Below, piece after piece: positions 24,321 through 55,000 of a stretch of DNA of 64,000 bases. The DNA comes from an uncultured Nannocystaceae bacterium (lineage in GTDB: Bacteria; Myxococcota_A; Bradymonadia; UBA7976; UBA1532). Both the position numbers and the translations under genes were made by a program. The notes beneath the pieces were generated by a model. That model made no database searches. It was not told where the DNA came from and was given only the letters and a program-made list of their open reading frames with translations. The stretch covers positions 103,601 through 167,600 of the forward strand of contig CAYLJJ010000001.1 in assembly GCA_964384025.1 (NCBI GenBank). The letters run 5' to 3'. Every line of letters begins with the position of its first letter. The stretch's first letter is position 1.

Positions 24321-26122
24321 GCGAGAGTTTCAATAACTCCATGACCGAGATGAGCCTTGATGGGGGTCGCTATGAGATCCAGACGCTCATCGGTGAGGGA
24401 GGGATGGGGCGTGTCTATCGCGCTTTACAGACCTCCATGAATCGCCTCGTGGCCATCAAGGTTCTACGAGCCTCGGTCAAAGAGGATGAGAAGCTTTTGC
24501 TCCGTTTTGGGCAGGAGATGAAGAGCCTCTCTCGTCTACAACACCCCAACGTCTTGACCATCCATGACTTTGGACAAGAGGGAAGCTCCCCCTATATTGT
24601 CATGGAGCTGTTGGGAGGGCAGAGCCTCTCCAGCCTCATCGCAAAGACCGGAGCGCTCCCTGAAGCACGCGCGCTGCACATCATAGAGCATGTCTGTGGT
24701 GCTGTCTCTGAGGCCCATAAATTTGGGATCATCCACCGAGATCTCAAGCCAGAGAATATCCAGATCGCGCGGGTGGGTAATGATCCTGACTTCGCGAAGG
24801 TCTTGGACTTTGGTATCGCCAAGATCGTCCAAGGAGATGAAGAGGCTGACGTAAATATCACCATCGCAGGGGCGATATTTGGGACCCCTCACTATATGAG
24901 CCCTGAGCAGGTTCATGGCGAGCGGGTAGATCATCGCACAGATATCTACGCCCTGGGCGTCATCCTCTGTGAGCTGCTCTTAGGGCGTCCCCCCTTTGAT
25001 GGCCCTACTGCAATGTCTGTAATGATGTCTCAGGCCTCCAAGCCGCCCCCTGATCTGCGCAAAGAGGCTCCTCATATCAGCGATTGCATCGTCGAACTGT
25101 TGGAGTCCTGCCTTTCAAAAAAGAGGGAAGAGCGCCCTCAATCTGTAGAGGAGATGATCAAAAAGCTTCGTGAGGCGATGTTTAAGCTGAGCGATTCGAC
25201 TGGAAATCTGATCCGCTTCATTCCCAGCGGGGAGCCGCTCGGTCCTGAGAGCAGCGCGCTCTCTCCCACACTACCTATGGAGGGAGATCAGGCCACAACA
25301 GATGAGCGTACTGCGCCCCCCAGAGCGACCCCTGAGCATGTTGGAGAGTTGGATTCCTCAGAAGATTCGGGTGAAGAGCAGAGAGGGGGCTCAAAACCCT
25401 GGCTCATCTCTCTCGTGCTCCTCTTGCTCCTCGGCGGTGGAGGCTTTTGGAGCTTTCAGAAGCTATACAGTGTGGAGGCTGAGGATCTGCTGATTCATCC
25501 GGTGGTGGAACCGGTTCGGATTCAGATGTCAGAAGCCCGCCACCTCATCGAGAGCACCCCCAGCAGAGCGAAGATCTTTGAGGGTGTTAGGTTCATCGCC
25601 CATACCCCCTATACGCTGATCTGGAACGATGGCAAAGATAGAACTGTGCAGCTCAAGTTGGAGGGACATATGGCTCACTCCATCACCCTCTCAGGCCGCG
25701 AAGAGAAGAAAACACAGCGGATCATCCTGATCCCTTCTGGGGCGTCAGCGTCTTCAGTCCCAGAGAAGGATCTCGGTCTCCCCGAGGCGCCCCTCAACGC
25801 TTGGCTGAAGATCAAGAGTGTTCCTTCGGGGGCTGAGGTTTGGGAGGGAAAGAAAAAGCTGGGGTCGACCCCCTTTGAGTGGAAGCCTTCTGTGGGGGGT
25901 GAGGTGAAGCTCTCCCTCAGCAAATGGGGCTATCAGAAACAGCCTTTGAGCATCCCCAGAGAGCCCGCAGGAGAGGAGCCGCTGGAGCTGAGCTTTAAGC
26001 TAAAGCGCAGAAAGCCAAAGCGGATCAAGAAGCCCACCGAGAAGCCCACCGAGAAGCCCACCGAGAAGAAGCAGGATGAGGTTCCTGAACCAGGGGAAGA
26101 AAACCCCTATATAAAACTCTGA
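24317..26122 (+). CDS. Ser/Thr protein kinase with a TM helix and two C-terminal PEGA domains
   Basis: Kinase motifs [28 protein letters not shown] helix [17 protein letters not shown]. Two PEGA-like blocks. [13 protein letters not shown] tail. The ATG at 24317 forms an ATGA overlap with the upstream stop; the track start is the ATG at 24308. Confidence 0.8.
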
Positions 26123-34938: not shown

Positions 34939-35005
34939 AGTGGGGAGAAGAGATTGCTTCCCCTCAAACCTCAAGCTACGGTCTCCCAATCCAAGGGAGA
35001 CTCGA

Positions 35006-37782: not shown

Positions 37783-38988
37783 GTGAACAAGGGGTGGTTG
37801 TGCCCAGCCGGTGAAATGCAGAGAGGGAAGCTCGCCCACATCTTAAGCAGCTGCTTTGCGGTCAGCGATGAGGAATCCCTGAACTGGTTTAAGAGGCTGG
37901 GAGAGGAGAATGTTCGAGTTGCCTTGCGTTTAGGTGAGGTGCAGGGGGGGATGGTATTGCTCCCGATGTTCCAGTACTTCGGTGGCAGACCCATCCCGAT
38001 GATGGGGGTGGCTGGGGTAGGAGTCTCTCCCTGTTATCGTCGCCAAGGTTTGGCTAAGAAGATGATGAAGCAGGCGTTGCTGGAGGCTCATGAGCGGGGC
38101 TTTGCTCTCTCCAGCCTCTACGCATCCAGCTTGGCCCTCTATCGCCACTCGGGCTATGAGCTGGCGGGGGGACGTTATAAGGTTCAGATCCCCGCTGAGT
38201 TGATCAAGGTCAAGGGTGACACAAGCAGGATCCAGGAGCTGGAAGAGGCGGATTTTGAAGCGGTCAAAGAGGTTCATCAGCGCTTCGCTGAAGCGGGCAA
38301 CGGCCAACTGGGACGCCCTGAGGCGCTCTGGCGTCGAGCACGCTTTGAGCGAGATGGGCGTCCCCTCTTTGGCTATGGCTATAGAACTGCGAAGGGTCTG
38401 GAGGGCTACCTCTATCTGCGAACGGAGCGTCAGCCCGGAGAGATGCACCATCTGCTCAAGCTGACCGACTTTATCGCTCTCAATGAAGCCGCAGCGCGAG
38501 GGCTCTGGGCCTTACTGAGCAACCACGCGACTACAGCATCGAATGTCCACTGTTTCCTCTCTCCCTGGAGCCTACCCCCTATGGTCTTAGAGGAGCGGCA
38601 AGCCCTCAAGACGCGGTTACTGGACACTTGGACTCTGCGGATCCTCAACATCCCTCTGGCCCTAGAATCACGCGGCTACCCCAAAGCGGTCTCTGGACGA
38701 GTCTCTCTTCGGATAAAAGACAAGCAGCTCTTCCAAAACAACCGCGCTTGGGTTTTGGATGTCGATAGGGGAGTTGCCCAGGTAAAGGTGGATGCTGAGC
38801 TTCCGTCACGCCTGAGATCATCCCATCCAGTCTTTTTGGGACCCAGGGGGCTCTCTGCCCTCTTTAGCGGTCATATGAACCCATTTCAGCTTAAAGCCCT
38901 GGGTTTTTTGGATGGAGAAGATCGAGACCTACTGACACTCCAGCTTCTCTTTGGAGGACCTCAACCCTGGATGATCGATATGTTTTGA
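37783..38988 (+). CDS. Eis-like GNAT acetyltransferase (tandem GNAT plus SCP2-like C-terminus)
   Basis: GNAT core GMVLLPMFQYFGGRPIPMMGVAGVGVSPCYRRQGLAKKMMKQALLEAHERGFALSSLYAS. ~400-aa length and C-terminal region are consistent with the Eis/SCP2 architecture. Confidence 0.6.
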   Translation: MNKGWLCPAGEMQRGKLAHILSSCFAVSDEESLNWFKRLGEENVRVALRLGEVQGGMVLLPMFQYFGGRPIPMMGVAGVGVSPCYRRQGLAKKMMKQALLEAHERGFALSSLYASSLALYRHSGYELAGGRYKVQIPAELIKVKGDTSRIQELEEADFEAVKEVHQRFAEAGNGQLGRPEALWRRARFERDGRPLFGYGYRTAKGLEGYLYLRTERQPGEMHHLLKLTDFIALNEAAARGLWALLSNHATTASNVHCFLSPWSLPPMVLEERQALKTRLLDTWTLRILNIPLALESRGYPKAVSGRVSLRIKDKQLFQNNRAWVLDVDRGVAQVKVDAELPSRLRSSHPVFLGPRGLSALFSGHMNPFQLKALGFLDGEDRDLLTLQLLFGGPQPWMIDMF

Positions 38989-39012
38989 ATAAAACTTAGA
39001 AATAACTCAAGA

Positions 39013-41544
39013 TTGCAACAAACAGTCCAAAAAAAGAGTGTTTTCCCATTGATAGAGCCTCGACCACTCAAATGCCCAGTTACAGGGTTGCTTATTCGGC
39101 GCGATCCTGCTTGGCAAGATATCCAGATCAATAAAGATTATTATGTCAGCTTTGAACTCATTGGAGAGTATATACTTCATACACAAATAAAGGGATTTTC
39201 TCCAAATCTAGATGTCGATCTTTTATATCAATACCGAGAAGTTGCGTTAATGGAATATTTAGGGGAGCCCTCTGATTTTATTGAGATAAAGAGATATGAC
39301 GACATCTATGGGCGTTCATCTAATGAGCAGATTAAGAAAAACATCTTTCATTTCATAAAAGACAACAATAGATGTCGTGGTTTTTTTGGATATGGTGCCA
39401 GATTATGGATTCGTAGTGTATTTAACCTGGCTTCTCGTCATTATAAAGTTAGATATCCTATCGAACAATATGGTTCTTACACTGAAGCGATTCAAGTTGC
39501 TCTGACAATTGAGAACAAACTCAGATTCGAAAAAGAATTTCGATCATTTATATTGCCTCATAAAACATATTTGGATGGAAATACTGGGTATGAGTTTTCT
39601 CAAATAAAAGACCATACTCTAATTATAAAACTAATCGGTTTTGTTAGTGATCCAAAGATCACTGAAGAGTTAATTCAGTTGCAGAGATCTGCTTACCAAG
39701 ACGGGCTTCTCAAGAAAGATAATAACTATCGGATTTTAGACTATTCTGAGTTTAGTGGAGCAACATGGAGTAGACGTTGGGCATATATAAATGGTCTCAA
39801 GAAATGTTATGAAGACTATGGCAAACCTAAAGCGATAGTATTTATTAGTACAAACAAATCTATGGAGTCATTTATCCGATCGATTGTTGCGTTTTTAGGC
39901 GCACCGTATTTCTTCGTTGAAAATTTTTCTGATGCGGTCAAAATTATCAGTGAACTTAAGTTTCATGGGTCTAAAAATGCCAAATCTGCACTTAAGCAGC
40001 TTACATATATTAGTCCACGTAGACTTTGGCGTCGTTGGTACAAGCTTCCTAAGCTTAGAGATCTTGAAGAGCTGTTTCTCAATTTAGGCCGAGTAGTTTG
40101 GGAACCTCAACCCTCCGAATTGCCTGATGTCAGCCCTGAACATCCCCTCGCTGATATATACTCTGCCCTACATCTTATCGTTCATGATGTAAAGCAGCTA
40201 TTGGATGAACGTCATAAACGCGAGAAAAAACTATCCCAAGTCCAAGATGAACTGATTCTCAGCAATCAGCGATTAGAAGAAGCTCTACAGCACTCAAAAG
40301 AGCTAACCCAAGAAGCTCAGGAAATGGCACATCAAGCCAAAGCCAGTAGCCAAGCAAAAAGCACATTTTTGGCCAATATGAGTCATGAAATACGCACTCC
40401 TATGAATGGAATCATCGGAATGTGTGCTTTGCTAAACGAATCGGAGCTAAATTCAAAACAACAAGAACAGCTAGGGATAATTCAACAAAGCTCTAAGCAC
40501 TTATTGAATTTAATCAACAGTATTCTGGATATTTCAAAACTTGAAGCGGGAAGGATGGAATTTGAACAACTTGATTTTCAACTTAAAGAGCAAATCAATG
40601 CACTTTTTAATACACTCTCTACCCAAGCAAAGAAGAAAGACATTCAGCTCCTGGCTGAGATCTCTCCTGATATTCCTAAGGCTTTGTTAGGAGATCAATC
40701 ACGTCTCCAACAGATCCTGCTCAATCTCTTGGGTAACGCGATCAAGTTCAGCCAAAATTGCTCGGTTCTGCTGCAAGTGGAGCTTCTCTCAGATCCTCAG
40801 AAAGAGGGGCCTATATCTCTACGCTTTGCGGTGAAAGATCAGGGTATCGGGCTCTCCCCAGAACAGCAGGAGCGCCTGTTCGAACCCTTCGTTCAAGCGG
40901 ACAGCTCCACTACCCGCCGTTATGGAGGGACCGGATTGGGCCTTTCTATCTGTCGCCACTTGGTGAAGCTATGGGGTGGCGAAATGGGAGTAAAGAGCAG
41001 CTTAGGAGAAGGCAGCGAGTTCTGGTTTGTGATCTCACTACAACAAGGCAAGGAGCAAGCGCGTACTCTTCCTGAGAGCAAGCAACTAAGCCAACTCAGA
41101 CAAGGGCCTCCCCTGCGGCTTCTCCTGGCTGAGGATAATCCTGTTAATCAGAGGGTTGCCCTGGGAATTTTGCGGCGCCTGGGCCATCAAGTCCAAGCTG
41201 TAAATGATGGCCTAGAAGCCCTGCAAGCCCTCAAAGAGGGCAGCTATGATCTGGTGCTCATGGACTGCCAGATGCCAAGGCTGGATGGCTATGAGGCCAC
41301 CAAGGCGATCCGCAGCGCTGGAGCCTCTTTAAGTGATCCACAGATCCCTGTGATCGCTATGACTGCCAACGCCATGACTGAGGATCGCCAGCGCTGCTTA
41401 GACGCAGGGATGAACGCCTATCTGAGCAAGCCAGTGAGGCCACAGTTGCTCGCTCAGGTTCTGGACCACTGGGGTAATAGAGCAGAGATCCAGAGGAGTG
41501 ACGGGGAACGACCGGATCCAGATATGGAGGGGTCGCCAAGTTGA
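39013..41544 (+). CDS. hybrid sensor histidine kinase / response regulator with a ~430-aa cytoplasmic N-terminal sensor region
   Basis: HisKA H-box [15 protein letters not shown]. HATPase N, G1 and G2 boxes ([27 protein letters not shown]). Receiver domain with [20 protein letters not shown] and a conserved Lys. No TM segments. Start codon is uncertain (TTG at 39013; no nearby ATG). Confidence 0.85.
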
Positions 41545-41625
41545 ATTTTATATACTCAGAAGCGCAGTTGATTGAATCCAGAGAGGGCAGAGTTTAGCAT
41601 CGGTGATCTTCGCTTCAGAGGGGAT

Positions 41626-42921
41626 ATGAGCGACAAACTACGTTTTGGAGAGATCCTGACTCGAGCGGGGGTCTTAGAGAGAACAGATCTGGAGAGCATC
41701 CTGTCTCTGATCGGAGACAGCGCGGTTGATCTGGGAGAGGTCTTGGTGAGCCGAGGTTTTTTAGATGAAGCCACGATGCTCAAGACCATCAGCAAAGCGC
41801 TCAATCTACCAAGCATAAGCCTAAAACATATCCAGCCAGATAAACGTGGTTTGGAGCTGATCCCCAGAGAGTTTTGTGCAGATCACTTCCTCCTGCCAGT
41901 GGAGGTAGAGCGTAGCCGCACTGGAGAGCATCTCCATGTGGCCATGGCCAACCCCTCTGATGTACGTGCCATCAAGCGCGTCACTCGAAAGGCCCGCCTT
42001 AGAATTCGTCCCCTGGTGGCCTCAGCTCGGGAGATTCGCGAGGCGATCCAACGCTGGTACGGTGGAGAGCTGGTTGAGGACTCCTCTCTGATCTTAGAGG
42101 AGAGCCTTAACTCCAGTATGGGAGGAGAAAACTCCAGTGAGAACCTCTTTGACTTTGGCCTCGGTGACCTTTCTCAATCCCTTCCAACAAAACAAGCCTC
42201 AACCCCTCCAAGAGCAAACTCTTCAAAGAGGAGAGGTGAAGAGGGGAGAATAACGCCCCCTGATCTGCCCAAGCAACGTAAGGCAGATCTGCTCAACGCT
42301 CTTGACTTAGAACCGGGATCCCAAACCTCCGAGGTCCAAGAGCGAGAGGAGCAAGGGTTTGGAACATTACCGAGGAGAGGCTCAAGACACCGTCCGCCTT
42401 CAGAGCGTCCTCCCTTTCGGAATTCAGAGCGTCCTCGCTCAGAGCGTCTGCCTCCTCTTCCGCGCCAGACCTCTCGAGAGCTTCCACCTCTCCCACCCAG
42501 TCTGCGAAGCGGCAATCAGAGGAAAGCCCCACGCAGCTCCTCAATTCCTCCTCAGAACATCAAACATAGCCGCGGCTCCTCAGCTCCTCCTCAGGGTGCT
42601 CAGGGTATCAAATACCACCAAAATTCAGCGCCGACCCTCGTTGAGGAGCGGGGCAGCGTTGAGGAACTCAAGGGGGTTTTGGATCGCTATGTCGCTGAGA
42701 TCAATGAGGAGAGCAGTGGAGATGGGCTGATCTCTCAGGAGTTGAAGCGTTACGGTCTTAAGAGATCATCTCCCGAGTCTGAGCTTTTCGCAGCTTTAGA
42801 GAACACCTTGAGTCGTGCTCAGGGTCCCAACGCTCAGCTTCTCCTCGCGCTGATCCGGCAACTGGCGCGCAGAGGCCTTTTGGATCTTCAGGAGCTGCTC
42901 TCGGATCTGCCCCCTCAGTGA
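41626..42921 (+). CDS. stand-alone MshEN / T2SSE_N domain protein (predicted c-di-GMP receptor) with a long Ser/Pro/Arg-rich disordered tail
   Basis: Tandem MshEN motifs RFGEILTRAGVLERTDLESILSLI, GDSAV, DLGEVLVSRGFLDEATMLKTISKA, then the rest of the GspE N-terminal fold. No ATPase domain. Start at ATG 41626 with GAGGGG upstream; the track begins at an upstream TTG. Confidence 0.7.
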   Translation: MSDKLRFGEILTRAGVLERTDLESILSLIGDSAVDLGEVLVSRGFLDEATMLKTISKALNLPSISLKHIQPDKRGLELIPREFCADHFLLPVEVERSRTGEHLHVAMANPSDVRAIKRVTRKARLRIRPLVASAREIREAIQRWYGGELVEDSSLILEESLNSSMGGENSSENLFDFGLGDLSQSLPTKQASTPPRANSSKRRGEEGRITPPDLPKQRKADLLNALDLEPGSQTSEVQEREEQGFGTLPRRGSRHRPPSERPPFRNSERPRSERLPPLPRQTSRELPPLPPSLRSGNQRKAPRSSSIPPQNIKHSRGSSAPPQGAQGIKYHQNSAPTLVEERGSVEELKGVLDRYVAEINEESSGDGLISQELKRYGLKRSSPESELFAALENTLSRAQGPNAQLLLALIRQLARRGLLDLQELLSDLPPQ

Positions 42922-44905: not shown

Positions 44906-45568
44906 ATGCTCAGCATGATCCTCATGGCCTCCCGGCGGCTTTTTCGTGGGGAGAACAGCGACGAGGAGTTAATGGAGAGGTTCCGAGACGGTGACACAAT
45001 GGCTTTTGAGATCCTGCTCAGTCGTCATGAGAGGGCCATCTTTAATTTCATCTACCGCATGATCAGAGATCGAGAGAAGGCTCAGGACCTCCTCCAAGAG
45101 ACCTTCCTCAGAGTGATCAAAAACAAACAACGCTATATCCCCAAGGCCCGCTTTACTACTTGGCTCTACACCATCGCTCGCAATCAGTGCATCGACGCCT
45201 TCCGCAAAGCGAAGCACAGAAGGCACGCCAGCCTGGACCAGCCCTATCGGGGAGAACCAGGAGGCCGTTCATTGATGGATAAGCTCCCCGGAAAAAGTGA
45301 GGATGCTCTCCAACGTAAAGAGGCTCAGGAGATCACTTTGCGCATCGAAGAGGCGCTCACTCATCTCAGCTCCGAGCAGCGTGAGGTCTTTGTGATGCGG
45401 CAGTTTCGCAACCTGCGCTTCAGGGAGATCGCTGAGATCGTGGGGGTCTCTGAGAACACCATCAAGAGCCGGATGCGCTATGCTCTAGAGCACCTTCGCC
45501 TTCAACTTGCTGATTATGCAGCAGAGCTGCCCAAGTCTCAGGTGATCCCCAAGAGGAGCCCAGCCTGA
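44906..45568 (+). CDS. ECF (sigma-70 group 4) RNA polymerase sigma factor
   Basis: Region 2 DLLQETFLRVIKNKQRY..TWLYTIARNQCIDAFRK. Region 4 FVMRQFRNLRFREIAEIVGVSENTIKSRMRYALEHLR. Confidence 0.85.
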   Translation: MLSMILMASRRLFRGENSDEELMERFRDGDTMAFEILLSRHERAIFNFIYRMIRDREKAQDLLQETFLRVIKNKQRYIPKARFTTWLYTIARNQCIDAFRKAKHRRHASLDQPYRGEPGGRSLMDKLPGKSEDALQRKEAQEITLRIEEALTHLSSEQREVFVMRQFRNLRFREIAEIVGVSENTIKSRMRYALEHLRLQLADYAAELPKSQVIPKRSPA

Positions 45569-46821
45569 TGAACTCTTCAATCGATGACAACCGCTTGTTG
45601 GAGCTGCTGTATGGAGAGTTGGAGGGGGAGGAGTTGCAGCATGTTGAAGCTTCTCTCAGTTCAGAGGAGCGTGATCTCCTCCAGAGCTGGGAGCAGATCA
45701 GAGAGGCCTGTATGTTGCTCCCTGAGTTGGAGCCAGATCTTCAGGCCCACTACAGCCTTCTCCGCGCCTCTCGCGCCTCTCCAAAGCCGCGCTTCTCGTT
45801 CTTTTTTTCGTTTTCGCTCAAGCATCTCTCTTTGATCCCTGGCGCAGCGACCTTGGGGCTGCTCATCTTAGCCCTTGGGACCTTCTATCTCCTCAATCAA
45901 GAGGAGAGCGGCAGAGGTGAGCTAAGCTTAGATCATTTTACCGCTCAAAAGCCGCCTCTTCCCCTGCCCACTGAGCCGCCAAAGCTTGCTCTAAAGAGGA
46001 GCCCGAAGGGCTCTGTAAAGAGCGCAGAGTTTAAAGAGAAGTCCCCAGCAAAGCAGATCCCTGAGGCGCCGTTGGAGAGAGTTGATAAGCCTGCGCTTAA
46101 AGCTGAAGCCAGAGAGAAGGAGAACCTCTCGGAAGCCAAAGAGTCAGCCAAGGTGCTCTCTATCGAGATAGAGACCCCCGCTTTAGAGAAGAAGCTCGAA
46201 AGAGCCAGAGAGCCTCGAAAAGCTGGCAAACGGAGACGCGCCAGAAGATCCCCGAGCACCAAGGCAAAGTTCCCAAAGACGCGGCCACAAAAAGCCAGAC
46301 CAAAGCAAGCCCTTCCAGTGAGGGCTCCTGAGCCCTCGCCAAAATTTGAACTTCAGCCCCCTATTCCACCCCCTTCTCCTCCAGAACCTCCTATATTGGA
46401 CTCCCTCCCAGAGTCATCCAGAGTTCGTTTTGCGCTCCCTCCCCCTCCCTCTATAGATGATGGGCTTTCAGGCAAAACCTCCGATTCAGCTCCTCAAGTT
46501 GAAGAGGTACTTCCCCCTCGAAACCTCGATGAAATCGGACCTCAAGCTGTCTCGATCGAGAGCCCCAACTCCTCAAAGCTGCTGCGGCAGGCACAAAGAG
46601 AGCGCTCTCGGGGGGATCATCACTCTGCGGTAAAGAGCTACGAGGCCTTTCTCTCTAGATATCACGAGCACCCAGCTCTCCAGAGGGTCCTTTTTGAGAC
46701 CGCTGAGAGCTATGAAGCTTTAGAGCAGCGGGAGCGAGCCCGACAGCTTTATCGTTTGGTTCAGGAAGCGGGGGGGGTGTTAGGAGATAAGGCCAAGGAG
46801 CGCTTAGAAGCCCTACAATAA
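45568..46821 (+). CDS. anti-sigma factor (single-pass membrane protein with a periplasmic Lys/Pro-rich region and a TPR-like C-terminus)
   Basis: 1-nt ATGA overlap with the sigma gene. N-terminal anti-sigma-like LLELLYGELEGEEL. TM helix GAATLGLLILALGTFYLL. C-terminal TPR-like SYEAFLSRYHEHPALQR. Confidence 0.65.
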   Translation: MNSSIDDNRLLELLYGELEGEELQHVEASLSSEERDLLQSWEQIREACMLLPELEPDLQAHYSLLRASRASPKPRFSFFFSFSLKHLSLIPGAATLGLLILALGTFYLLNQEESGRGELSLDHFTAQKPPLPLPTEPPKLALKRSPKGSVKSAEFKEKSPAKQIPEAPLERVDKPALKAEAREKENLSEAKESAKVLSIEIETPALEKKLERAREPRKAGKRRRARRSPSTKAKFPKTRPQKARPKQALPVRAPEPSPKFELQPPIPPPSPPEPPILDSLPESSRVRFALPPPPSIDDGLSGKTSDSAPQVEEVLPPRNLDEIGPQAVSIESPNSSKLLRQAQRERSRGDHHSAVKSYEAFLSRYHEHPALQRVLFETAESYEALEQRERARQLYRLVQEAGGVLGDKAKERLEALQ

Positions 46822-46828
46822 GCACAAC

Positions 46829-47551
46829 TCAGCGATCTTCAGGGAGGCTCTCCAAGAGCGCTCGGTATTTGATAGTTTTACGACCTGGGTTGGGAAAAGA
46901 GGTCTCTTTTAAGATCTCCAAAACACAGGAAAAGAGACCCTCTGGAGGGGGCTGCTTGGATTGAAAACCGGCTGAGAGGAGGCGCCCTGGCCGGGCGATA
47001 TAGGCGACCATGTGAAAAGGGGCTCGAAACTTATAACTCTGGCGACAGCCTTCTATCTCTCGTCGTTTGCTCCTGAGGGCTCGATAGCCCCAACTCTCTT
47101 CGACTTGTTGAGAGAGCCGAGTTCCTGCCAAGTTTCGATGGATTGGGTAGAGGAAGAGAGCTGCTGCTTGGCCGCTGGGTTTGGGAAACTCCAAGAAGCG
47201 CCCCGCTTGAACTAAGCACTCCTCAATAGCCAAGCTCCCCATGCTGGAGCGTTCTACATGGACCCGCTCCACCTGCCCCTCGACGTTCACCAAAAAACGC
47301 AGATGGCTGACGCCGCTGATATAGGCTGCTCCCGCCCTGAGACAGTTATCAAAGCCTGCACGGTGAGCCTCCATTACCACCTCGACTTGCTCCTGGGAGA
47401 GCTGCCCATAGCTGCTCTTCAGATCCTCCTCTCTTTGAATCTCCCTTAAGCGACTGTCTGGAGGGGGGCGATGCCCCGAGCCGGTAAAATCATCTGAGGG
47501 GAGGGGCCCACAGGCGAGAAGCAGAAGGGCGGTGAGCAAGCTGTATTTCAT
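46829..47551 (-). CDS. hypothetical lipoprotein
   Basis: Lipobox LLLLACGP. Likely the last gene of the long minus-strand operon. Confidence 0.5.
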   Translation of the reverse strand: MKYSLLTALLLLACGPLPSDDFTGSGHRPPPDSRLREIQREEDLKSSYGQLSQEQVEVVMEAHRAGFDNCLRAGAAYISGVSHLRFLVNVEGQVERVHVERSSMGSLAIEECLVQAGRFLEFPKPSGQAAALFLYPIHRNLAGTRLSQQVEESWGYRALRSKRREIEGCRQSYKFRAPFHMVAYIARPGRLLSAGFQSKQPPPEGLFSCVLEILKETSFPNPGRKTIKYRALLESLPEDR

Positions 47552-47593: not shown

Positions 47594-48124
47594 TCAAAGA
47601 TCCCAAATCCACTTGGAGCGCTGATAGGGCTTGGCTCTCTGGCGTTTCTTTTTACGACGCGCTGCCCGTTTGCGGGCCCTCTCCTTGGCTTTGCGCTTCT
47701 CCTCTTTTGGATCGATCTTGGGGGGAGGCTCTACTGTAGCTTGAACTCGATCTCCTAAGCTGATAGCGAGGGCCTCAGGGCTGCTCCTCTTCTTTCGAGA
47801 CTTTCTCCTGCGTTTTCTCTTTTTAAGACCATCATAGACGATCTCGGCGATGAGAAGCTTGCCTCGAATCTCCTTGATCTTAAGCTGGCCCACGTTGACT
47901 CGATACTGGCTCTCAGCCTCGCCGGGGATGTTTCGCTCTCGCAGCACAGTGAAGCGCCCTCCCAAGAGCAACTTCATCTGCTCCTCGGGTCCCTTTAGGC
48001 GCTTTAAAAAGACCTGTCGAGTTGCGGTCACAAAGCGGCCTTTAAGCTCTACAGGTCGGTGGATGTTGATCACCTCCAGCTCAAAACTGATCAGGCTGAG
48101 GAGGAGAGAGAACAGAGGGCTCAT
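47594..48124 (-). CDS. hypothetical protein with a highly basic Lys/Arg-rich C-terminal tail
   Basis: 4-nt overlap with the cyaA stop. N-terminal hydrophobic segment. C-terminus KKRKRRRKSRKKR...KRKAKERARKRAARRKKKRQRAK. Confidence 0.45.
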   Translation of the reverse strand: MSPLFSLLLSLISFELEVINIHRPVELKGRFVTATRQVFLKRLKGPEEQMKLLLGGRFTVLRERNIPGEAESQYRVNVGQLKIKEIRGKLLIAEIVYDGLKKRKRRRKSRKKRSSPEALAISLGDRVQATVEPPPKIDPKEEKRKAKERARKRAARRKKKRQRAKPYQRSKWIWDL

Positions 48125-51100
48125 GGGCTCTCCCTGAAGGGGCTTCGGCTGGTCACGCTGCGGATCTTCTCTCCACGAAAGACCAAGAGAGCTCGCTTCA
48201 AAGCGTTCTCATAGAGGTCGATGAGGCGCAGGTGCTTGACCACGCCTCGATCAACCCCCTTTTGACGATGCGCCGGTCCAAAGTTGACTACCGAGGCGTC
48301 GATCTCGAAGAAGTCTGCATCGTAAGGGCTGCGTCTCCTCATCAACTCAAGCAGGGTCTCGTAGACAAAGGCGCGACCATGCTCCTGGGCGCTGATGCGT
48401 CGCTGAGCGATCTGAAACCAGAGCCCAGCGCGCCCCTTCTGGAGATCCCCACCCAACCAAAGCTCCTCTCTGGAGCTGCGAGCTTGCATCAAAGCGTCCA
48501 GGACCCTCTGAGTATCATCCAGAGGGCTGGCCTGCTCTCCAGGGCGCTGTGGCCCCCTCAGATGAAAGATACGGAGCTGGCGGCGCAGCTCTCGGGTGTT
48601 ACGCACAGACTCTCGGAGTCGCAAGATGATGCGACGCACCAGGGTCAATAGGATCCCCTCAAGATCTTGAGGGGGGAGTTGACGGTGATAGATGCGTTGG
48701 ATCTCATCACAGATAAAGATTTGACCCCGTTGAGGGGAGAGCCGCCAAGCGATAAGGACCCCTGGCTGAAGCTCATCGAGGCGACGCTTTACCAGAAGCC
48801 GTAGATCTCCCAGGTTCGCTGAGAGGCGATCGATCTTCAACTCCTGGAGGTCATAGCCACAGTTGCCCAGAATACGACAGACCCCTTTGAGAGAGCGGAG
48901 CCCGCAGAGAAGATCACCATCAGCGCTGCGATAGATCACTTGGAAACGCCCCCCCACCTCATAGACAAAACCCCGACTGTGGCGCGGCTTGAGAGGCTCT
49001 ACTAGGACCCAGCTGCTCTCCCGCAGTAGTTCAGTGATGCGGTTGCGCACCGCAGGCAGCATACGGTCTGAGGGCGCCAAAACCACGACCTCTTCTATCG
49101 CCGCCTGAGGTTCAACTTCAGCGAAGAGAGACTTAAGGGCTGAGGGCACCGCCTGAGGCCCTGAGTGGCGATGGCAGAAGACCTCCCCCCAACTATTGAG
49201 GCTGAGGACAGAGACTTCGCTGAGTTGGCAGCGTCGTTTGCGACCATAGTTGAGGATGTCCCAGTTTTCAGGGAGATAAAAGACGCCTGCCTGCTCACTG
49301 GCGTCACTGAGGGTTCTGGGGCGATCAAAGTTCACCAGCACCGCCACCCTCAAGATTGAGCGGCGCTCTAGAAAGCGGCCAGGGGCGATACTGAAGGGAT
49401 CAGGACTCTCAAAGATCCTCTGGAAGCGCTGAAGCATCCCCCGCAACTCATTGGGGCTGACACGCGAGATGGGGCTGATCAGGGCTACCACCGTACCGGA
49501 GTGATAGAGGCCATTAAAGGTGAGCCAACCGGCGATCTCTGCGATGGTTGAGGCGCTCCAGATCGGCTCCCCTCGGCTGAGGATGCGCTCTCTCTTTAAC
49601 TCCCGATGGATCTCCCAGCGTCGCACAGGGAGGGCTTCAGGGACCTCTAAGATGACCAAGCGATCTTCACAGCGGGGTTCCTTGAGGAAGTAGGTAAAAA
49701 GATGACGGATCTTGCCTGGCTCTCGCCCAAAGACCGCGAAGAGACGACGCCCCAGGATGGTGATATCCTTCTCGTTGATATGAACGGTGGCCTCTCTGGC
49801 TCGGCGAATCAGGTGGCGGTAGAGCCCCAACATAAAGCTGCGGATCTGTTGCCCAATCTCGTCCACCTTCTCAGCCGACCAGCTTTCCAAGCTGTCCAGC
49901 TCCTCAAGCAGTTCGCGATCCCACCCCCAACGCTCGATATAGGCGCGCATCACTTGAAAGCGCCGCATAAAGAGCTTGCGCTCAGAGCGCTCCTTGGAGA
50001 GCTTAAGCCCTACCTTGAGATAGAAGCACTTCTGCACCAGACGGAAGGCTTTCCAGTCCCCTCGATCAGCAAAATATCCACTGATAGCGTCAAAGAGGAG
50101 CACATAGGGATCGGTGTACTGAGGACCATCCTCACCCTGAAAGACGCGCTCTTTGAGCTGGTCACAGAGCAGCCTGGGTTTTGGATCATCCAGATAACGC
50201 AGCAGCAAAGCCATCTTGAGCAAGCTCTTAAAAGGACTCCTCAAGCTCTTGTTGATTTGCCAAAGCGCAGCGCCAAAGAACTCTCCACGATCAATCTCAG
50301 CGATAAAGCCCAGATCCACCACTGAGATGCCAGGGGGGAGCTGAGCCCTTTCAAGAGCATGAAGCACACGCTGATAGCCCTGCGCGCTGACCCCTACAGG
50401 TACCAGCCACCAAGCGGGGATATCTCCACTGATCAGCACCGCCGTACGATAAAACTCCTCCTTTAAAAGCTTGCCTTGAGCGCTGCCTGATGAGTCTACA
50501 TCCTCCTCCGCTCCCCCGAAGTCATTGGCTCGGCTGCGCTTTAGATCCACCAGGAAGAAGTGTGCATCGAGGCCTCGCTTCTGAACCCAGGCTTCAATCT
50601 TCTGGATACGCTCTTTAAGAGCTCGCTGCTGTTGCAGAGAGAGGCGGTCAAGCTCAACAACGACCCAGTAATCAACATCACTCTTACCCGATTGACCGAT
50701 GGTGCCCACGCTGCCCATCGCCAAAAGAGAGAGGATATGCGGTCTCTGAGGAGGCTGCTCAGCCAGGGCCCCTCGTCGAGAGAAGAAGCCCTCAGCTGCG
50801 TGGCGAATGCTGAGGTTGAACTCAAAGTTACGGATTCCGTGGGGCGCTCCGGCGACATAGCTTGGCAGGTGGGGGAGATTTTGGTGAAGGAGGTAGGGGA
50901 TCACCGAAAAGAGATTGCGCTCCTTGGGCTTGAGCGCCTGATATAGATAAGCCAGTTTCATCTTGGTGAAGCGCAGATAGGCTTGTAGATGCTTGCCCAG
51001 CTGCTCTATCCCCAGACCTGAGTCCATGCTGCGACTGGACTGAAGCATCTCCTTAAAATAGGGCTTCGCGAATGATAGCCCCTCCTCGGGACCTTCCTCC

Positions 51101-51255
51101 TTCTGCTCCAGGGTGATCGGCCCCGAGTACTCCAGCTTAAGGGGGGTAGCTTCCTCCGCGATCCAAGCCCCAGCAAACTCCTCCTTGCTTAGGCCCTGGA
51201 GCCAGCCGGCTACAGAGTCAGTTGCCTGTGGAGGAGGAAGCTTGGGCAAGATCAC
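48121..51255 (-). CDS. cyaA: class I adenylate cyclase (CyaA family, enterobacterial type)
   Basis: Alignable by eye to E. coli CyaA. [21 protein letters not shown] matches [43 protein letters not shown] matches [20 protein letters not shown] (catalytic Asp pair). FFLVD matches FFLID. [21 protein letters not shown] matches [40 protein letters not shown] matches [42 protein letters not shown] matches CFYLKVCEKLSRER. GTG start forms a GTGA overlap with the fliW stop; the N-terminus is ~75 aa longer than E. coli, and Met68, Met75 and Met108 are possible alternative starts. Confidence 0.85.
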   Translation of the reverse strand: [1044 protein letters not shown]

Positions 51256-51722
51256 CTCAGAGAGATGGAGCGGGCCTCAGAGCTTTGCCCTGGTTGCCCC
51301 TCCTTTAGAACATAATATTTGACCGGGTATCGCTGATCCCTCAGAACAAGCTGCATCCCCAGCCGCTTCTCCAAGTTAAAGATCAAGGGAGCCAAGAGGT
51401 TGGCGCTCATCTCTCTCACCTCAGCAGGGATGGTCATCAACACCGAGACCACCAAGTCCTCTTCCTCTCTCGGCTCGATCACCTGAACCTCTGAGCGTTT
51501 CAGAGAGATATGGTAGTCAGGCTTAAAAAAGAGGGGATCAGTGACTACAAAAGCCAGCTGAGGCTCATCCACAGACTGCAACCATTTGAAGGGTGTACCC
51601 TCGTGATCAACGATCACATAACGACGCTGTTTAGCAAACCCCAGGAGCCCCATAGGGAAATAGTAGAGTTGAGCCTCATCGATCTCCAGGGAGCCAAAGC
51701 GACTGGTCTGAATATTCATCAC
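51252..51722 (-). CDS. fliW: flagellar assembly factor FliW (CsrA antagonist)
   Basis: FliW signature FGSLEIDEAQLYYFPMGLLGF...YVIV..EGTPFKWLQSVDEPQLAFVVTDP. 4-nt overlap with csrA. Confidence 0.85.
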   Translation of the reverse strand: MMNIQTSRFGSLEIDEAQLYYFPMGLLGFAKQRRYVIVDHEGTPFKWLQSVDEPQLAFVVTDPLFFKPDYHISLKRSEVQVIEPREEEDLVVSVLMTIPAEVREMSANLLAPLIFNLEKRLGMQLVLRDQRYPVKYYVLKEGQPGQSSEARSISLR

Positions 51723-51958
51723 CCCTCCTCCTGTGGAGCAAAGAGATCGCTGATCGCCTCTAGGCTGTTGCTGTCTGGTGCCAAGGCTTTGAGATTCTCC
51801 TCTTGGATCTTCTTATACAGCTCTTCTCGGCAGACATAGATATCTCTGGGGGCGATGATCCCCAGGCGGATCTGTCGCCCTCTGATCTCTTTGACGATGA
51901 TTTTGATATCATCTCCAATACAGATCGCCTCCCCGAGCTTGCGGGTCAGTGTCAGCAC
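51719..51958 (-). CDS. csrA: carbon storage regulator CsrA
   Basis: MLTLTRKLGEAICIGDDIKIIVKEIRGRQIRLGIIAPRDIYVCREELY is the classic CsrA fold sequence with the flagellar-type C-terminal extension. Confidence 0.9.
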   Translation of the reverse strand: MLTLTRKLGEAICIGDDIKIIVKEIRGRQIRLGIIAPRDIYVCREELYKKIQEENLKALAPDSNSLEAISDLFAPQEEG

Positions 51959-52006: not shown

Positions 52007-52894
52007 TCAGCGCAAGTAATTGAGCAGGGAGACCTCAGCCATGATGCGCCCGCTGAGAGCCATCGTTGCCTGAAGCGCATTCTCACTGAGGCTCAACTCC
52101 GAGATGATTCGGCTGAGATCAGCGTCTCGAAGATCGGAGAGTTCCTCAGGAAGGCGCTCACTCAAGGTCTCATGAACCGCCCGAGCTGCCTCCAAGCTTT
52201 GAAGCTGTGTGCCCACCCGAGCGCGGGCCTTAATCTGCTGCTCGATCCCCAACTCCAAATTCTCAAGCCCTGTCTGCATCTCTCCATTATCGCGGTCTGA
52301 GATCGCCTCGGCCAAGCTCTTTAAGTCCTCAAAGAGGTTGCGGGTGTCGGCGGTCCCATCTCCAAAGGCCAGCCCTCCAGGGAGGCTGCTCTCTAGGTGC
52401 AGCCTCTCGCCCACCTCTAGGCGCGGCGCGCGAAGATCTCCCTGGTAGGAGAAGTCATCGGCATAGGGTGGATCGCCGCTGCCTCCACCAAAGATCCACT
52501 GCTCTCCAGAGCGGCTGTTGGCCAAAGCTCTAAGATGCTCTCTCAAGGCCAAGATCTCTCCTGAGATGATCTCTGCATCTTCAGGGAGGAGGCTGGCGTT
52601 GATCCCCTGGATCGCCAGCTCTTTGGCGCGATAGAGGGCCTCGTTGGCCTCCCCCAACTTGGCGTCTGAGAGCCCTAAGGTGGCCGTGGCGCGATCCTGA
52701 GCCCTGCCATGCTGGACCCAACGGCTGCGCTGGCTCTCTAGGGCTCGAACACGCAGCGCCCCCAGAGGATCATCTGAGGGTTTGTGGATCCGATGACCGG
52801 AGAGGATCTGCTCCTGAAGCTTCGCGCTTCGCTCACGATGGCGCTCAATCCGACGACTGGGTTCAAGATAGCGGCTGCGCTCAGTGATCCTCAT
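52007..52894 (-). CDS. flgL: flagellar hook-associated protein 3, FlgL
   Basis: Flagellin-like N-terminal helix (RITERSRY...) and C-terminal ...ALQATMALSGRIMAEVSLLNYLR. Position downstream of flgK. Confidence 0.8.
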   Translation of the reverse strand: MRITERSRYLEPSRRIERHRERSAKLQEQILSGHRIHKPSDDPLGALRVRALESQRSRWVQHGRAQDRATATLGLSDAKLGEANEALYRAKELAIQGINASLLPEDAEIISGEILALREHLRALANSRSGEQWIFGGGSGDPPYADDFSYQGDLRAPRLEVGERLHLESSLPGGLAFGDGTADTRNLFEDLKSLAEAISDRDNGEMQTGLENLELGIEQQIKARARVGTQLQSLEAARAVHETLSERLPEELSDLRDADLSRIISELSLSENALQATMALSGRIMAEVSLLNYLR

Positions 52895-52912: not shown

Positions 52913-54286
52913 CTACTGCACCAAAGCCATCACGGTGTCCAGGAGGCGATCAACAGTGGTGATCACTCGAGAGCTGGCCTCAAAGTGCTTCTGGAAGCGG
53001 CTGAGCTGAACCATCTCCTCATCTGTGCTCACCCCCGTCACTGAGTCTCGCAGAGCTTCAGCCTGCTCTGTACGCACCTCAGCCAACAGCCTTCGATCCC
53101 GATTCTCAGCGGCGGCCCTCCCTAGAATCTCTAGACGCTCTCCAAAGGCGCGCTGAAGGCTTCGGTTGCCAAGGGCTGCGCGTGTGGAGCCTTGTAGATC
53201 CGCGAGGAGCTGAGCCTGCCGCTCATCTCCAGGGAGCCCCGCGACCTCCTCAGCCGCAGCGACCTGATCGGGATCCTCAAGGGCCACCCGAATAAGCCCT
53301 GCGGCTCCCTCAGCAGCGCCCAGGGCCTGAAAGAGATCACGCCCCCCCAATCCATCCAGGCCAAAGCCCCCTTGGTGGGTCTGATTGACCGCGTTGATCA
53401 GCTCAAAGGCGAGGTTATCCAGAGCACCGCGCTCCTCCGCCAACTCCTCATCTCGGATGGAGATCAATCCCCCCAGCTCTCCTGAGCGAAGCTGGGCGGT
53501 GAGATCTCGTCCTCCCACGCTCAAAGTCAGGGTACCTAAGCCATCTACGCTGGCCTCCAGGGGTCGAACCTGATCTCCCTGAACGAGGAGCTGCCCCTCC
53601 AAAATCAGGCTTGTTCCCTCCGCCTCATTCAGCACCGTCACCCCCAGACCCTGAGAGAGGAGCTGGAGTTGCTGATCGCGCTCATCTCGAAGATCGTTGG
53701 CTCGGCTCCCGTCTGCCTCGCTGGCACGAACCTGGGCGTTGAGCTGGGCGACCGCCGCCAAACGCTCATTCAGCTCAGCGACCTGAGCGCGAATCTGATC
53801 ATCTAGACCCTGCTCTAGAGCCTCAAAGTCGCGATCCAAGCTCTGGAAGCCATCAGCGAGGCTGTTGGCTGCGCCCAGGAAGCTGCGACGATGTGCTTCG
53901 CTGCTGGGCGCCTGGGTCAACTCCCGAGCGGCATTGAAGAAGCGATCCATCTGCCCACTTAGATCAGGCTCATTTCCCTCAGAGAAGAGGCGTTCTAGAG
54001 GGTTCAAGCCTGAGGCACGCCCCTCATAGAAGCCCCCCAGCCCTCGCTCTCTCCTGAGCTGGGTCTCTAGGAAAGGGTCTTCACTGCGCTGGATGCCTTG
54101 GCTGAGAGCACCTCGACCCACAGGACCTGCGCGACCCAGCCTAAAGGCAGGCTGGGTTCCCAGGTGCAGGCGTTGGCGGCTGAAGCCTTCAGTGTCAGCG
54201 TTGGCGAGGTTGTGCCCGACTGTAGCAAGGCCCAGGCGAGCTACACGTAATCCAGAGGCAGCTGTTTGAATTGTATTATTGAGCAC
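52913..54286 (-). CDS. flgK: flagellar hook-associated protein 1, FlgK
   Basis: N-terminus MLNNTIQTAASGLRVARLGLATVGHNLANADTEGFSRQRL and C-terminal ...VTGVSTDEEMVQLSRFQKHFEASSRVITTVDRLLDTVMAL. Confidence 0.85.
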   Translation of the reverse strand: MLNNTIQTAASGLRVARLGLATVGHNLANADTEGFSRQRLHLGTQPAFRLGRAGPVGRGALSQGIQRSEDPFLETQLRRERGLGGFYEGRASGLNPLERLFSEGNEPDLSGQMDRFFNAARELTQAPSSEAHRRSFLGAANSLADGFQSLDRDFEALEQGLDDQIRAQVAELNERLAAVAQLNAQVRASEADGSRANDLRDERDQQLQLLSQGLGVTVLNEAEGTSLILEGQLLVQGDQVRPLEASVDGLGTLTLSVGGRDLTAQLRSGELGGLISIRDEELAEERGALDNLAFELINAVNQTHQGGFGLDGLGGRDLFQALGAAEGAAGLIRVALEDPDQVAAAEEVAGLPGDERQAQLLADLQGSTRAALGNRSLQRAFGERLEILGRAAAENRDRRLLAEVRTEQAEALRDSVTGVSTDEEMVQLSRFQKHFEASSRVITTVDRLLDTVMALVQ

Positions 54287-54686
54287 TTGAGCGCCTCCTC
54301 ATTGGACCATAGCTCTCTCTGGGCTTAAGTCGCCTTATGCTGCGCGCCAACAGCTCTTGAGCGGTGGAGGCGAAAGCTTGGTTCTCCTGGCGCAGCTTGA
54401 GGAGATGCTCAGCAAGCCCTCGAAGTCGCTCACGAGCAGCGACGATCTCAGGCCCTTCAAGCTCAGAGAGCTGGCTCGCTCCAGGAGAGAGCGCTTGGAG
54501 AGAGCGAAACCCCTCTTGTCGGATGCGTTTGTGCTCGGCGCTCAGATGTTGGATGTTGTGGAGTTGAATCTCCAGAGCGCTGCTGTCCATTCGACGCAGG
54601 GCCTGAGCCTGAAGCTCAAGGGCGCTGATCAGTCGAACAAGGCAGGCTTCCTCTTTGGAGAGTGATTTGAGCAGCGCGATCAACAT
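54276..54686 (-). CDS. flgN: FlgN-like flagellar export chaperone
   Basis: 136-aa predicted helical protein between flgM and flgK, overlapping flgK by 11 nt. Assigned by position and size only. Confidence 0.5.
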   Translation of the reverse strand: MLIALLKSLSKEEACLVRLISALELQAQALRRMDSSALEIQLHNIQHLSAEHKRIRQEGFRSLQALSPGASQLSELEGPEIVAARERLRGLAEHLLKLRQENQAFASTAQELLARSIRRLKPRESYGPMRRRSSAQ

Positions 54687-54715: not shown

Positions 54716-55000
54716 TCAGCCAAAGAGGCTGGCCTCTCTGATCATCTCTTCAGCGACGCGCTGAAAATCGGGGCGATACTCACCTTTGGTGATCGCCTCT
54801 CGCAGCTGGGCGACCCGAGCTTCATCCACCTCGGGGCTTCGCTTCGCCTTGACCGTGGCCACCGCCGCCTCTCGACGGGAGTGATCAACGCTCTCTCCAG
54901 ATTGGGTTGAGCGCTGCTTCTCCGCCTTGAGACCCTCAGCGCGACCCTTGGGCCGTCCTAGGGTTGAAGGGGAGTGGGTCCCTGTGATTCTCACCGCCAT
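54716..55000 (-). CDS. flgM: anti-sigma-28 factor FlgM
   Basis: C-terminal sigma-28-binding region VDEARVAQLREAITKGEYRPDFQRVAEEMIREA. Confidence 0.8.
   Translation of the reverse strand: MAVRITGTHSPSTLGRPKGRAEGLKAEKQRSTQSGESVDHSRREAAVATVKAKRSPEVDEARVAQLREAITKGEYRPDFQRVAEEMIREASLFG

Follow-up and report, generated by a model that had tools for sequence, protein, structure and literature searches.

A predicted class I adenylate cyclase encoded directly behind fliW in the filament-stage flagellar cluster of a Myxococcota/Bradymonadia lineage

In model organisms, cAMP acts upstream of flagellar gene expression: in E. coli, cAMP-CRP activates flhDC, and the adenylate cyclase CyaA is itself regulated by the PTS via its C-terminal domain. 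The 64,000-nucleotide stretch of DNA analysed here (the window) carries a cyaA-like gene that abuts fliW inside a flagellar cluster, in a lineage from a phylum noted for its gliding motility and type IV pili. To our knowledge, a cyclase that forms a conserved, translationally coupled part of the filament-stage block has not been reported for any flagellar system. We therefore asked whether the gene encodes a genuine cyclase, whether its position behind fliW is conserved, and what the association could mean.

A preliminary description had assigned the gene to the CyaA-type cyclases, and this assignment was borne out. An independent gene caller run on the source contig gave the same gene, the product matched both class I Pfam families far above their cutoffs (Table 1), and BLASTP aligned it with E. 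coli K-12 CyaA (E 2e-80, 31% identity across 679 aa). The catalytic Asp pair is present as proposed: S182, S192, D193, D195 and W197 align to E. coli S103, S113, D114, D116 and W118, residues whose importance is given by Linder 2008, as cited in PMC12104821, and the catalytic set is intact. The other motifs named at the outset were all found (MGSVGTIGQSGKSDVDYWV, HFFLVD, LLKEEFYRTAV, EFFGAALWQINKSLRSPFKSL and CFYLKV); HFFxxD, SGSAQxxLLKEEFYRT and EFFGAALWQxNKxxxSPFKS, conserved across about 90 outgroup sequences, are intact, and all four family-wide motifs are unbroken. Structurally, the catalytic core folds as a Pol-beta-type nucleotidyltransferase, and the AlphaFold2 model of the whole protein reached a pLDDT of 88.4 and a pTM of 0.83. 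A sequence search of the PDB gave no match and Foldseek against the PDB gave weak nucleotidyltransferase matches only (E ~1e-2), implying that no class I cyclase structure can be recognised in the PDB as searched. Nine NCBIfam class I equivalog models all scored below cutoff (best NF006981, 439.9 bits against 802), so the protein represents a divergent branch while still being a family member. We conclude that the gene product is a class I (CyaA-type) adenylate cyclase, predicted to be catalytically competent, and that this flagellar-context cyclase is a variant of a known enzyme family.

Table 1. Coordinates of the flagellar genes, the cyclase gene with its parts, and the downstream genes in the window
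Feature	Position	Strand	Evidence or remark
flgM, anti-sigma-28 factor	54716..55000	-	Pfam FlgM 2.9e-11
flgN, chaperone of hook-associated proteins	54276..54686	-	Pfam FlgN 1.2e-08
flgK, hook-associated protein 1	52913..54286	-	Pfam FlgK_D1 1.1e-52
flgL, hook-associated protein 3	52007..52894	-	Pfam Flagellin_N 3.4e-12; position after flgK kept in all loci
csrA, 79 aa, long form	51719..51958	-	Pfam CsrA 3.6e-22; NCBIfam NF002469 84.3 bits (cutoff 73); TIGR00202 82.8 bits (cutoff 70.1)
fliW, overlaps csrA stop	51252..51722	-	Pfam FliW 8.2e-38; C-terminal tail ...ARSISLR
cyaA-like class I adenylate cyclase, 1044 aa, GTG start	48121..51255	-	Pfam, BLASTP, AlphaFold2 model
Cyclase N-terminal extension, aa 1-80	51016..51255	-	Mostly low pLDDT; probably disordered
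Adenyl_cycl_N domain, aa 91-283, housing the Pol-beta-type nucleotidyltransferase core	50407..50985	-	Pfam PF12633, E 4.5e-49, 167.6 bits (cutoff 27)
Catalytic motif G181-S182...S192-D193-V-D195-Y-W197	50665..50715	-	Alignment to E. coli CyaA
Adenylate_cycl class I domain, aa 313-748	49012..50319	-	Pfam PF01295, E 4.5e-81, 273.7 bits (cutoff 27)
Cyclase C-terminal region, aa 749-1044	48124..49011	-	Diverged long-form class I cyclase C-terminus
pX, 176-aa basic protein, ATGA overlap with cyaA stop	47594..48124	-	Sequence, homologues
Putative lipoprotein, 240 aa, TonB_C/AgmX-PglI-like C-terminal domain	46829..47551	-	NCBIfam NF033768 5.4e-12

The window protein shares with E. coli CyaA (848 aa) its Pfam domains, the catalytic Ser/Asp/Trp set, the flanking motifs and the succession of an N-terminal catalytic and a C-terminal regulatory part; it differs in being of the ~950-aa long form with an added extension at the N-terminus. 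The preliminary description had counted a ~75-aa N-terminal extension and ~120 further residues. An extension of about 60-80 aa, modelled with low confidence (pLDDT 37-71 over residues 1-60) and holding a short conserved helix (DxVAxWLxxL in the alignment consensus, aa 13-22), does exist; the extra length is however no novelty, being that of the ordinary long form. The C-terminal 296 aa were considered as a novel domain and rejected as such, since the usual ~950-aa class I cyclases of the long form have C-termini to which the profile of this region aligns colinearly, as a remote homologue; the region's identity to E. coli CyaA is 7-11%. Long-form cyclases are known from non-enteric Gammaproteobacteria and other phyla (NCBIfam PRK09450.2 models; best matches NF006981 and NF006984), and those sampled lie in unrelated genomic contexts with no fliW neighbour, unlike the window gene. 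The supposition that class I cyclases are essentially gammaproteobacterial proved wrong: among 684 homologues scored at E<=1e-10, the named sources include Nitrospinae, Thermodesulfobacteriota, Desulfatiferula and Myxococcota, and the case corrects the textbook view of a family confined to Gammaproteobacteria. A search for literature on class I cyclases in Myxococcota found nothing relevant.

We then considered how the gene is built into its surroundings. The upstream genes had been read as flgM, flgN, flgK, flgL, csrA and fliW, and Pfam agreed in every case. FliW and CsrA are encoded side by side by overlapping genes in this filament-stage cluster, csrA and fliW being adjacent after flgM-flgN-flgK-flgL and CsrA being of the long form, as in the systems with a FliW-CsrA-flagellin partner switch (Bacillus subtilis, Campylobacter jejuni, Helicobacter pylori; PMC7829508, PMC11905337). 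Those systems include no cyclase, whereas here cyaA follows at once: at the junction ...CTGAG GTGA TCTTG, the cyaA GTG and the fliW TGA share a 4-nt overlap. An alternative in-frame TTG at 51249, two codons past the GTG and 5 nt after the GAGG in GAGGTGATC, has better Shine-Dalgarno spacing, so the true start may lie 2 nt past the fliW stop; read from the sequence, coupling is tight with either codon. The next junction is an ATGA overlap, confirming the predicted coupled basic gene (pX; pI 11.2, 49 K+R residues). A sequence scan from flgL to the end of pX showed no terminator-like or sigma-70-like sites; the abutment of fliW and cyaA, with no intergenic space, stood. The linkage to csrA-fliW recurs in every related locus found, which is far stronger evidence than the preliminary description could draw on. 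The notion that cyaA closes the operon applies to this window only, because fliS follows pX on the same strand in 13/13 relatives with enough flanking DNA. The last same-strand gene of the window array encodes instead a putative lipoprotein that has no tblastn match in the related loci, where fliS occupies its place.

Upstream of flgM, the same-strand array runs on through the rod and ring genes flgF/G/A/H/I/J, with a 115-nt gap between flgJ and flgM that could house an internal promoter. This gap bears a weak TCAAG...CGAT resemblance to a sigma-28 promoter, and no TAAA-N14-16-CCGATA match to the sigma-28 type (TAAA-N15-GCCGATAA) occurs in the whole window, with the caveat for both that the consensus may not be that of the host lineage. 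Since no such match was found and the array continues through the rod and ring genes, a "late" timing of the cluster is not established, and the suggestion in the preliminary description that cAMP synthesis is timed to completion of the hook-filament junction is hypothetical. Direct control of cyaA translation by CsrA was considered and dropped, as no convincing GGA site was seen by eye at the cyaA ribosome-binding site. The window gave no hits to Rfam or in a tRNA scan, and it contains no flagellin gene.

The arrangement extends well beyond this contig. Beyond the window, 22 loci from MAGs and metagenomes labelled Myxococcota/Bradymonadia have a cyaA gene behind fliW at a gap of -4 to +37 nt: 11/11 genome loci, the low-GC locus L015 and 10/10 evaluable metagenome loci with FliW at least 51% identical. 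In contrast, none of the 68 more distant FliW loci has cyaA after fliW. The relatives share the order csrA-fliW-cyaA-pX-fliS, facing fliD-flaG-flagellin, and carry two flagellin genes at a distance of 4-7 kb downstream. In 11 loci, pX and the cyaA stop overlap by 4 nt. The window has undergone rearrangement of the downstream flank, yet fliW-cyaA-pX were kept together. The linked loci form one clade, except for the low-GC lineage of L015 and L098. Recent horizontal transfer of cyaA was considered but left no sign: its GC (0.54-0.58) is that of the neighbouring DNA and the clade is old.

Not every linked cyclase appears functional. Seven fliW-linked relatives (L009, L010, L019, L021, L023, L028 and P0027) lack all four catalytic motifs, yet they retain the fliW linkage and a conserved C-terminal ~300 aa, and the complete ones have ORFs of about 1000 aa. 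Relative to the window protein, the catalytic parts of these dead members are 30-37% identical, against 49-78% in active members, whereas the C-terminal region is 35-46% identical in dead and 32-55% in active members. Within the clade, the C-terminal region is equally conserved in active and catalytically dead members. Maintenance of the fliW-cyaA arrangement across the lineage, even in dead copies, suggests that flagellum assembly and cAMP signalling are connected in a way not yet described.

How is this association best explained? The reading that we favour, and hold to be probable, is that a long-form cyclase, predicted to be competent, has become part of the filament-stage flagellar cluster in a clade of flagellated, Myxococcota/Bradymonadia-labelled MAGs and takes flagellum-related input. 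It would be quite improbable, in comparison, that the cyclase is a passenger, a general housekeeping supplier of cAMP whose gene came to lie behind fliW in an ancestor, the order then being inherited with no specific flagellar function. Descent of all linked loci save L015/L098 from one clade suits such a history, as does the occurrence of class I cyclases elsewhere in unrelated contexts; the stop/start-level junction has nevertheless persisted while cyaA diverged to 31-35% identity across fliW-linked loci, flagellar genes flank cyaA on both sides in the relatives, the block survived the rearrangement next to it in the window, and dead copies were kept in place. We consider it highly improbable that cyaA-pX are driven by a promoter of their own inside the fliW coding region, untied from the flagellar hierarchy: the close junction in every locus, a Shine-Dalgarno-like GAGG within the last fliW codons in several loci and the absence of promoter-like sites in the scan all speak against it, although the scans covered sigma-70 and sigma-28 types only and the lineage may use another consensus.

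The dead relatives raise a different alternative, rather unlikely, in which what is conserved is a role other than catalysis: as a scaffold or a regulator, the protein would serve the FliW-CsrA-flagellin-FliS circuit via its C-terminal ~300 aa, cAMP being accessory or ancestral and dropped in some lineages. The seven motif-less relatives argue for it, with their full-length ORFs and a C-terminal region as conserved as that of active members, and their mutual identity of 37-41% across the deepest splits implies long persistence under selection. The presence of dead copies in a subclade argues that making cAMP is not the whole of the conserved role, and clade-wide that role may be something other than cAMP synthesis. 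Conversely, no catalytic motif conserved in the outgroup cyclases is missing from the window protein or from most of the clade, which argues that catalysis is under selection here; besides, the two roles are not mutually exclusive, and the dead relatives constitute a natural experiment separating them.

Under the favoured reading of a flagellum-integrated cyclase, csrA-fliW-cyaA-pX would act as a stop/start-coupled block, continuing into fliS in the relatives, from which the cyclase would be co-transcribed and co-translated with FliW; such co-expression would limit cAMP synthesis to cells building flagella. E. coli cyaA is a stand-alone gene beside hemC and cyaY, and the window cyclase, lying inside a flagellar cluster, would by contrast sit downstream in the logic connecting cAMP and the flagellum. 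The diverged C-terminal region, the part still conserved in dead relatives, would take flagellum-related input instead of the PTS input of the E. coli enzyme; no PTS genes were found among the window proteins scanned. The leading candidate partner would be FliW, through a conserved C-terminal tail, RSISLR, that the described partner-switch systems do not have. This tail occurs only in the cyaA-linked FliW of the main clade, where it is conserved while six of its six codons vary synonymously, and it bears a faint resemblance to the ...LSLLG terminus of flagellins from the clade. In the low-GC L015 lineage, fliW-cyaA occurs without the RSISLR tail, and since the other linked loci form a single clade, common descent confounds the co-occurrence of the FliW tail with cyaA and pX. 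The cAMP produced could be read out by cNMP-binding proteins encoded in the same window, such as a 672-aa dual-cNMP protein at 12410-14428. More speculatively, and in our estimation doubtful, the cyclase might be a fourth partner of the FliW-CsrA-flagellin switch, the RSISLR tail docking on the C-terminal region, cAMP reporting the cytoplasmic flagellin/secretion state, and dead cyclases persisting as pure FliW/FliS-binding regulators.

If the enzyme is controlled by the assembly state of the flagellum, it would give cells a simple way to announce internally that a working flagellum is in place, and this signal could toggle them between swimming and programmes of surface motility or predation. 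All of these predictions are open to heterologous expression although the organisms are uncultured. We found no paper on a class I adenylate cyclase with FliW, and papers on FliW, CsrA, adenylate cyclase and cAMP, judged by title and abstract, describe no such link. The class I CyaA of Vibrio cholerae AJ10 is light-responsive and its cAMP output alters flagellar motor performance (PMC13079933). Its terminal regions give non-PTS sensory input; its input is however light and its gene does not lie in a flagellar operon, while the link between cyclase and flagellum in the window is known from the genome alone.

Finally, we analysed pX, in which a beta-barrel spans aa 15-98 and a basic helix aa 139-162, and whose C-terminal part bears the conserved motif KPY.R...W.L. 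By inspection, its homologues have typical Sec-type signal-peptide-like N-termini; that of the window protein is short, uncharged and hydrophobic (MSPLFSLLLSLISF). No relevant Pfam match, FlgT domains included, was obtained at E<=1 for 13 family members. A word-indexed search returned the query alone, and three more proteins with the family alignment, because low-complexity Pro/Ala/Lys words saturated the candidates; an exhaustive HMMER search gave 24 representatives. We propose that pX is a small new family and a candidate lineage-specific flagellar accessory protein. The best match of its beta-barrel is a chain of the Vibrio LPHT-ring, chain 5, which is probably FlgT, judging from the chain length and the ring composition. 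Compared with Vibrio FlgT (H-ring) and TsaP, which forms a ring round the type IV pilus secretin, pX is much smaller and has no sequence-level match to any Pfam family.

The minus-strand open reading frame at 48121..51255 (GTG start, 1044 aa), placed by the preliminary description in class I on an alignment by eye, is real, and gene calling on the metagenome contig it comes from predicted it identically. Its product is a class I adenylate cyclase by Pfam (Adenyl_cycl_N, 4.5e-49, aa 91-283; class I Adenylate_cycl, 4.5e-81, aa 313-748), and BLASTP against E. coli K-12 CyaA (reference sequence taken from NC_000913) aligned 679 residues at 31% identity (E 2e-80). The catalytic Asp pair is kept: D193 and D195 align with Asp114 and Asp116 of E. 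coli, and in the same alignment S182, S192 and W197 correspond to Ser103, Ser113 and Trp118, these five E. coli residues being named as key catalytic ones in PMC12104821, citing Linder 2008. The motifs HFFxxD, SGSAQxxLLKEEFYRT and EFFGAALWQxNKxxxSPFKS are all intact and are near-invariant among 120 homologues. An AlphaFold2 model built with 82 homologues reached a pLDDT of 88.4 and a pTM of 0.83; its first ~60 residues, not confident, are probably disordered. The window cyclase has a nucleotidyltransferase fold and an intact predicted active site; the copy of the PDB that was searched contained no class I cyclase structure. The protein matches nine NCBIfam class I models, all far under their equivalog cutoffs (best 440 bits versus 802); it is therefore a divergent member, by these scores belonging to the class I family and not an equivalog of its curated subfamilies. 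The extra residues relative to E. coli CyaA, listed in the preliminary description, reflect the long-form architecture, which is common, together with an extension at the N-terminus, since a profile built from the last 296 residues aligns colinearly with the C-terminal ends of typical class I cyclases of ~950 aa (E 5e-11 to 1e-4).

Pfam identified the genes upstream of cyaA as those for FlgM, FlgN, FlgK, FlgL, CsrA and FliW, and the junctions first described were found again: the fliW stop overlaps the cyaA start (GTGA), and the cyaA stop overlaps the start of the gene for a 176-aa basic protein, here called pX (ATGA). The csrA and fliW genes overlap as well. A TTG codon is better spaced from an upstream GAGG than the GTG, so cyaA may start 2 nt past the fliW stop; the choice of start leaves the conclusion unchanged. 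No terminator-like or sigma-70-like site was seen from flgL to the end of the pX gene, and the same-strand gene array reaches upstream through flgF/G/A/H/I/J. For the proposal that cAMP synthesis is timed to completion of the hook junction, no promoter evidence was found.

We then looked at related loci. Scanning one genome from each GTDB species gave 11 loci, all from MAGs labelled Myxococcota, Myxococcales, Bradymonadia or plain "bacterium"; each with a long enough contig has the order flgJ-flgM-flgN-flgK-flgL-csrA-fliW-cyaA, with 1-17 nt from the fliW stop to the cyaA start. A metagenome scan, queried with FliW and not with the cyclase, gave 80 loci. cyaA directly follows fliW in all ten evaluable ones whose FliW is at least 51% identical to that of the window, and in none of 68 with a more distant FliW; in many of these distant loci fliW is the final gene ahead of a convergent gene. 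More distant class I cyclases lie in unrelated gene neighbourhoods. In 11 loci the pX start and the cyaA stop overlap by 4 nt, and fliS follows pX on the same strand in 13 of 13 relatives with enough sequence, opposite a convergent fliD-flaG-flagellin-flagellin block. The cyclase gene therefore normally sits between the genes of two flagellin-binding proteins, FliW and FliS. In the window, unlike in these relatives, fliS, fliD, flaG and flagellin genes are all absent; after pX come a TonB_C/AgmX-like lipoprotein gene, which is not conserved, and then a convergent ECF sigma pair, an arrangement that, judged from the gene order, is a local rearrangement sparing fliW-cyaA-pX. The genes csrA-fliW-cyaA-pX are stop/start-coupled in the window, and their order and tight junctions are kept across the clade.

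Within this main clade, the cyaA-linked FliW proteins all end in R/K-S-I-S-L-R-COOH after a variable linker, with the variants PLTLR (L002) and KAISLS (L028). The tail is absent from every FliW examined that has no cyaA neighbour. All six tail codons vary synonymously among loci; the tail is therefore conserved for its amino acids, and not merely because cyaA needs a ribosome-binding site there. The association of tail, cyaA and pX is nonetheless confounded by common descent, because their co-occurrence falls within one clade. In a low-GC lineage outside it, fliW lies 37 nt upstream of cyaA in P0028/L015, the C-terminal regions of L015 and L098 are not clade-like (12-18% identity for the L015 cyclase), and their FliW proteins have no RSISLR tail. 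Linkage of fliW and cyaA may thus either predate the main clade or have arisen twice. Clade flagellins end in VALSLLG, whose faint likeness to ISLR is too short to count.

Some relatives have lost the active site. Seven homologues have degenerate versions of all four conserved motifs (for example GSVGTIGQSGKSDVDYW to GEPGTLIEGGDPLLTVY), yet their genes still adjoin fliW, and the complete ones are ORFs of ~1000 aa. They are mutually 37-41% identical across their deepest splits, which argues for long persistence under selection, and they look like long-lived pseudo-cyclases. Active members, so called from intact motifs, and dead ones fall in one clade of a neighbour-joining tree. Over the N-terminal and catalytic parts, dead homologues are 30-37% identical to the window cyclase, whereas active ones are 49-78% identical; over the C-terminal 300 aa the two groups share the same range (35-46% and 32-55%, respectively). 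Conservation across the whole clade thus lies in the C-terminal region and not in the active site.

The pX protein, encoded at 47594-48124 on the minus strand, has a pI of 11.2 and 49 K+R residues and is always cyaA-coupled. Its family is small and unannotated, with no Pfam match; of 1.84 billion cluster representatives, 24 belong to it at E<=1e-3. Its homologues, 166-442 aa long, have N-termini that by inspection resemble Sec-type signal peptides. Between their two conserved segments lies a variable insert rich in either Pro/Ala or Lys/Arg, and beyond these come a run of prolines and a basic C-terminus that ends in KPYERKVMRWKL; the window pX N-terminus carries a weak hydrophobic segment only. 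An AlphaFold2 model (pLDDT 85) consists of a beta-barrel and a basic helix, the barrel being best matched by TsaP and by a Vibrio LPHT ring chain that is probably FlgT. A periplasmic flagellar accessory protein is a plausible identity for pX.

From this arrangement, cyaA would be co-expressed with filament-stage genes, so that cAMP would be made in flagella-building cells. A flagellum-related input would reach the cyclase through its C-terminal region, and FliW is the foremost candidate for it. The more far-reaching idea that the partner switch of FliW is wired to the cyclase seems to us rather unlikely. cAMP output would be read by cNMP-binding proteins; a class III cyclase gene and a gene for a protein with two cNMP-binding domains indicate that the genome has more cyclic-nucleotide signalling parts, candidate cAMP receptors among them. 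The window cyclase departs from E. coli CyaA in its gene context, its C-terminal region and the direction of its regulatory logic. No paper in the literature searched connects a class I cyclase with FliW; those that bring up FliW and CsrA together with adenylate cyclase and cAMP describe no such connection in their titles or abstracts. A variant class I CyaA from V. cholerae senses light through its terminal regions, and cAMP raises flagellar motor output (PMC13079933, 2026); this gives a precedent for the family acquiring new inputs and for effects of cAMP on flagellar function.

Features of the window and of related loci (coordinates without a locus name are within the window)
Feature	Location	Strand	Remarks
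Dead cyclase homologues, fliW-linked	L009:9935-12967; L010:9944-12952; L023:1701-4748; L028:5489-8524; L019:2495-4969; L021:1852-3720; P0027		motif loss
Low-GC lineage, fliW then active class I cyclase	L015:2-3350		activity by motifs
Low-GC lineage, pX-like exported protein downstream	L098:38-3427
FliW RSISLR tail	51252-51275; also FliW C-termini of L001-L011, L018-L029	minus (window)	present only where cyaA follows
Alternative cyaA start	51247-51255	minus	in-frame TTG two codons past GTG; 5 nt from GAGG within GAGGTGATC
Rearranged stretch after pX	44906-47551		240-aa putative lipoprotein (lipobox LLAC) with TonB_C/AgmX-PglI-like domain; ECF sigma and 417-aa gene
ECF sigma, convergent	44906-45568		accompanied by 417-aa gene
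Protein with two cNMP-binding domains, 672 aa	12410-14428	minus	candidate cAMP receptor
Class III cyclase, HAMP and Guanylate_cyc	7187-9043	minus	
GNAT/SCP2 acetyltransferase gene, in GC dip	37783-38988
Hybrid histidine kinase, in GC dip	39013-41544
1759-aa protein, mostly MopE-type putative metal-binding repeats	29595-34874	plus	GC skew there strongly positive, 0.14-0.19
Ser/Thr kinase genes	5910-7190, 24308-26122, 34940-36814

The preliminary view that class I cyclases are essentially gammaproteobacterial does not hold: among 684 proteins scored at E<=1e-10, with taxon names only where the source gives them, named homologues include Nitrospinae, Thermodesulfobacteriota, Desulfatiferula olefinivorans, Myxococcota and Gammaproteobacteria. 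Seven class I cyclases of 1060-1340 aa (P0042, P0049, P0057, P0076, P0099, P0105 and P0106) carry fused N-terminal pentapeptide-repeat and HEAT-like regions, by their domain make-up another undescribed architecture of the class; one pentapeptide-repeat fusion comes from D. olefinivorans. Elsewhere in the window, GC content falls to 0.46-0.49 at 38001-42000, against 0.53-0.60 in the remainder, and this dip may be foreign DNA.
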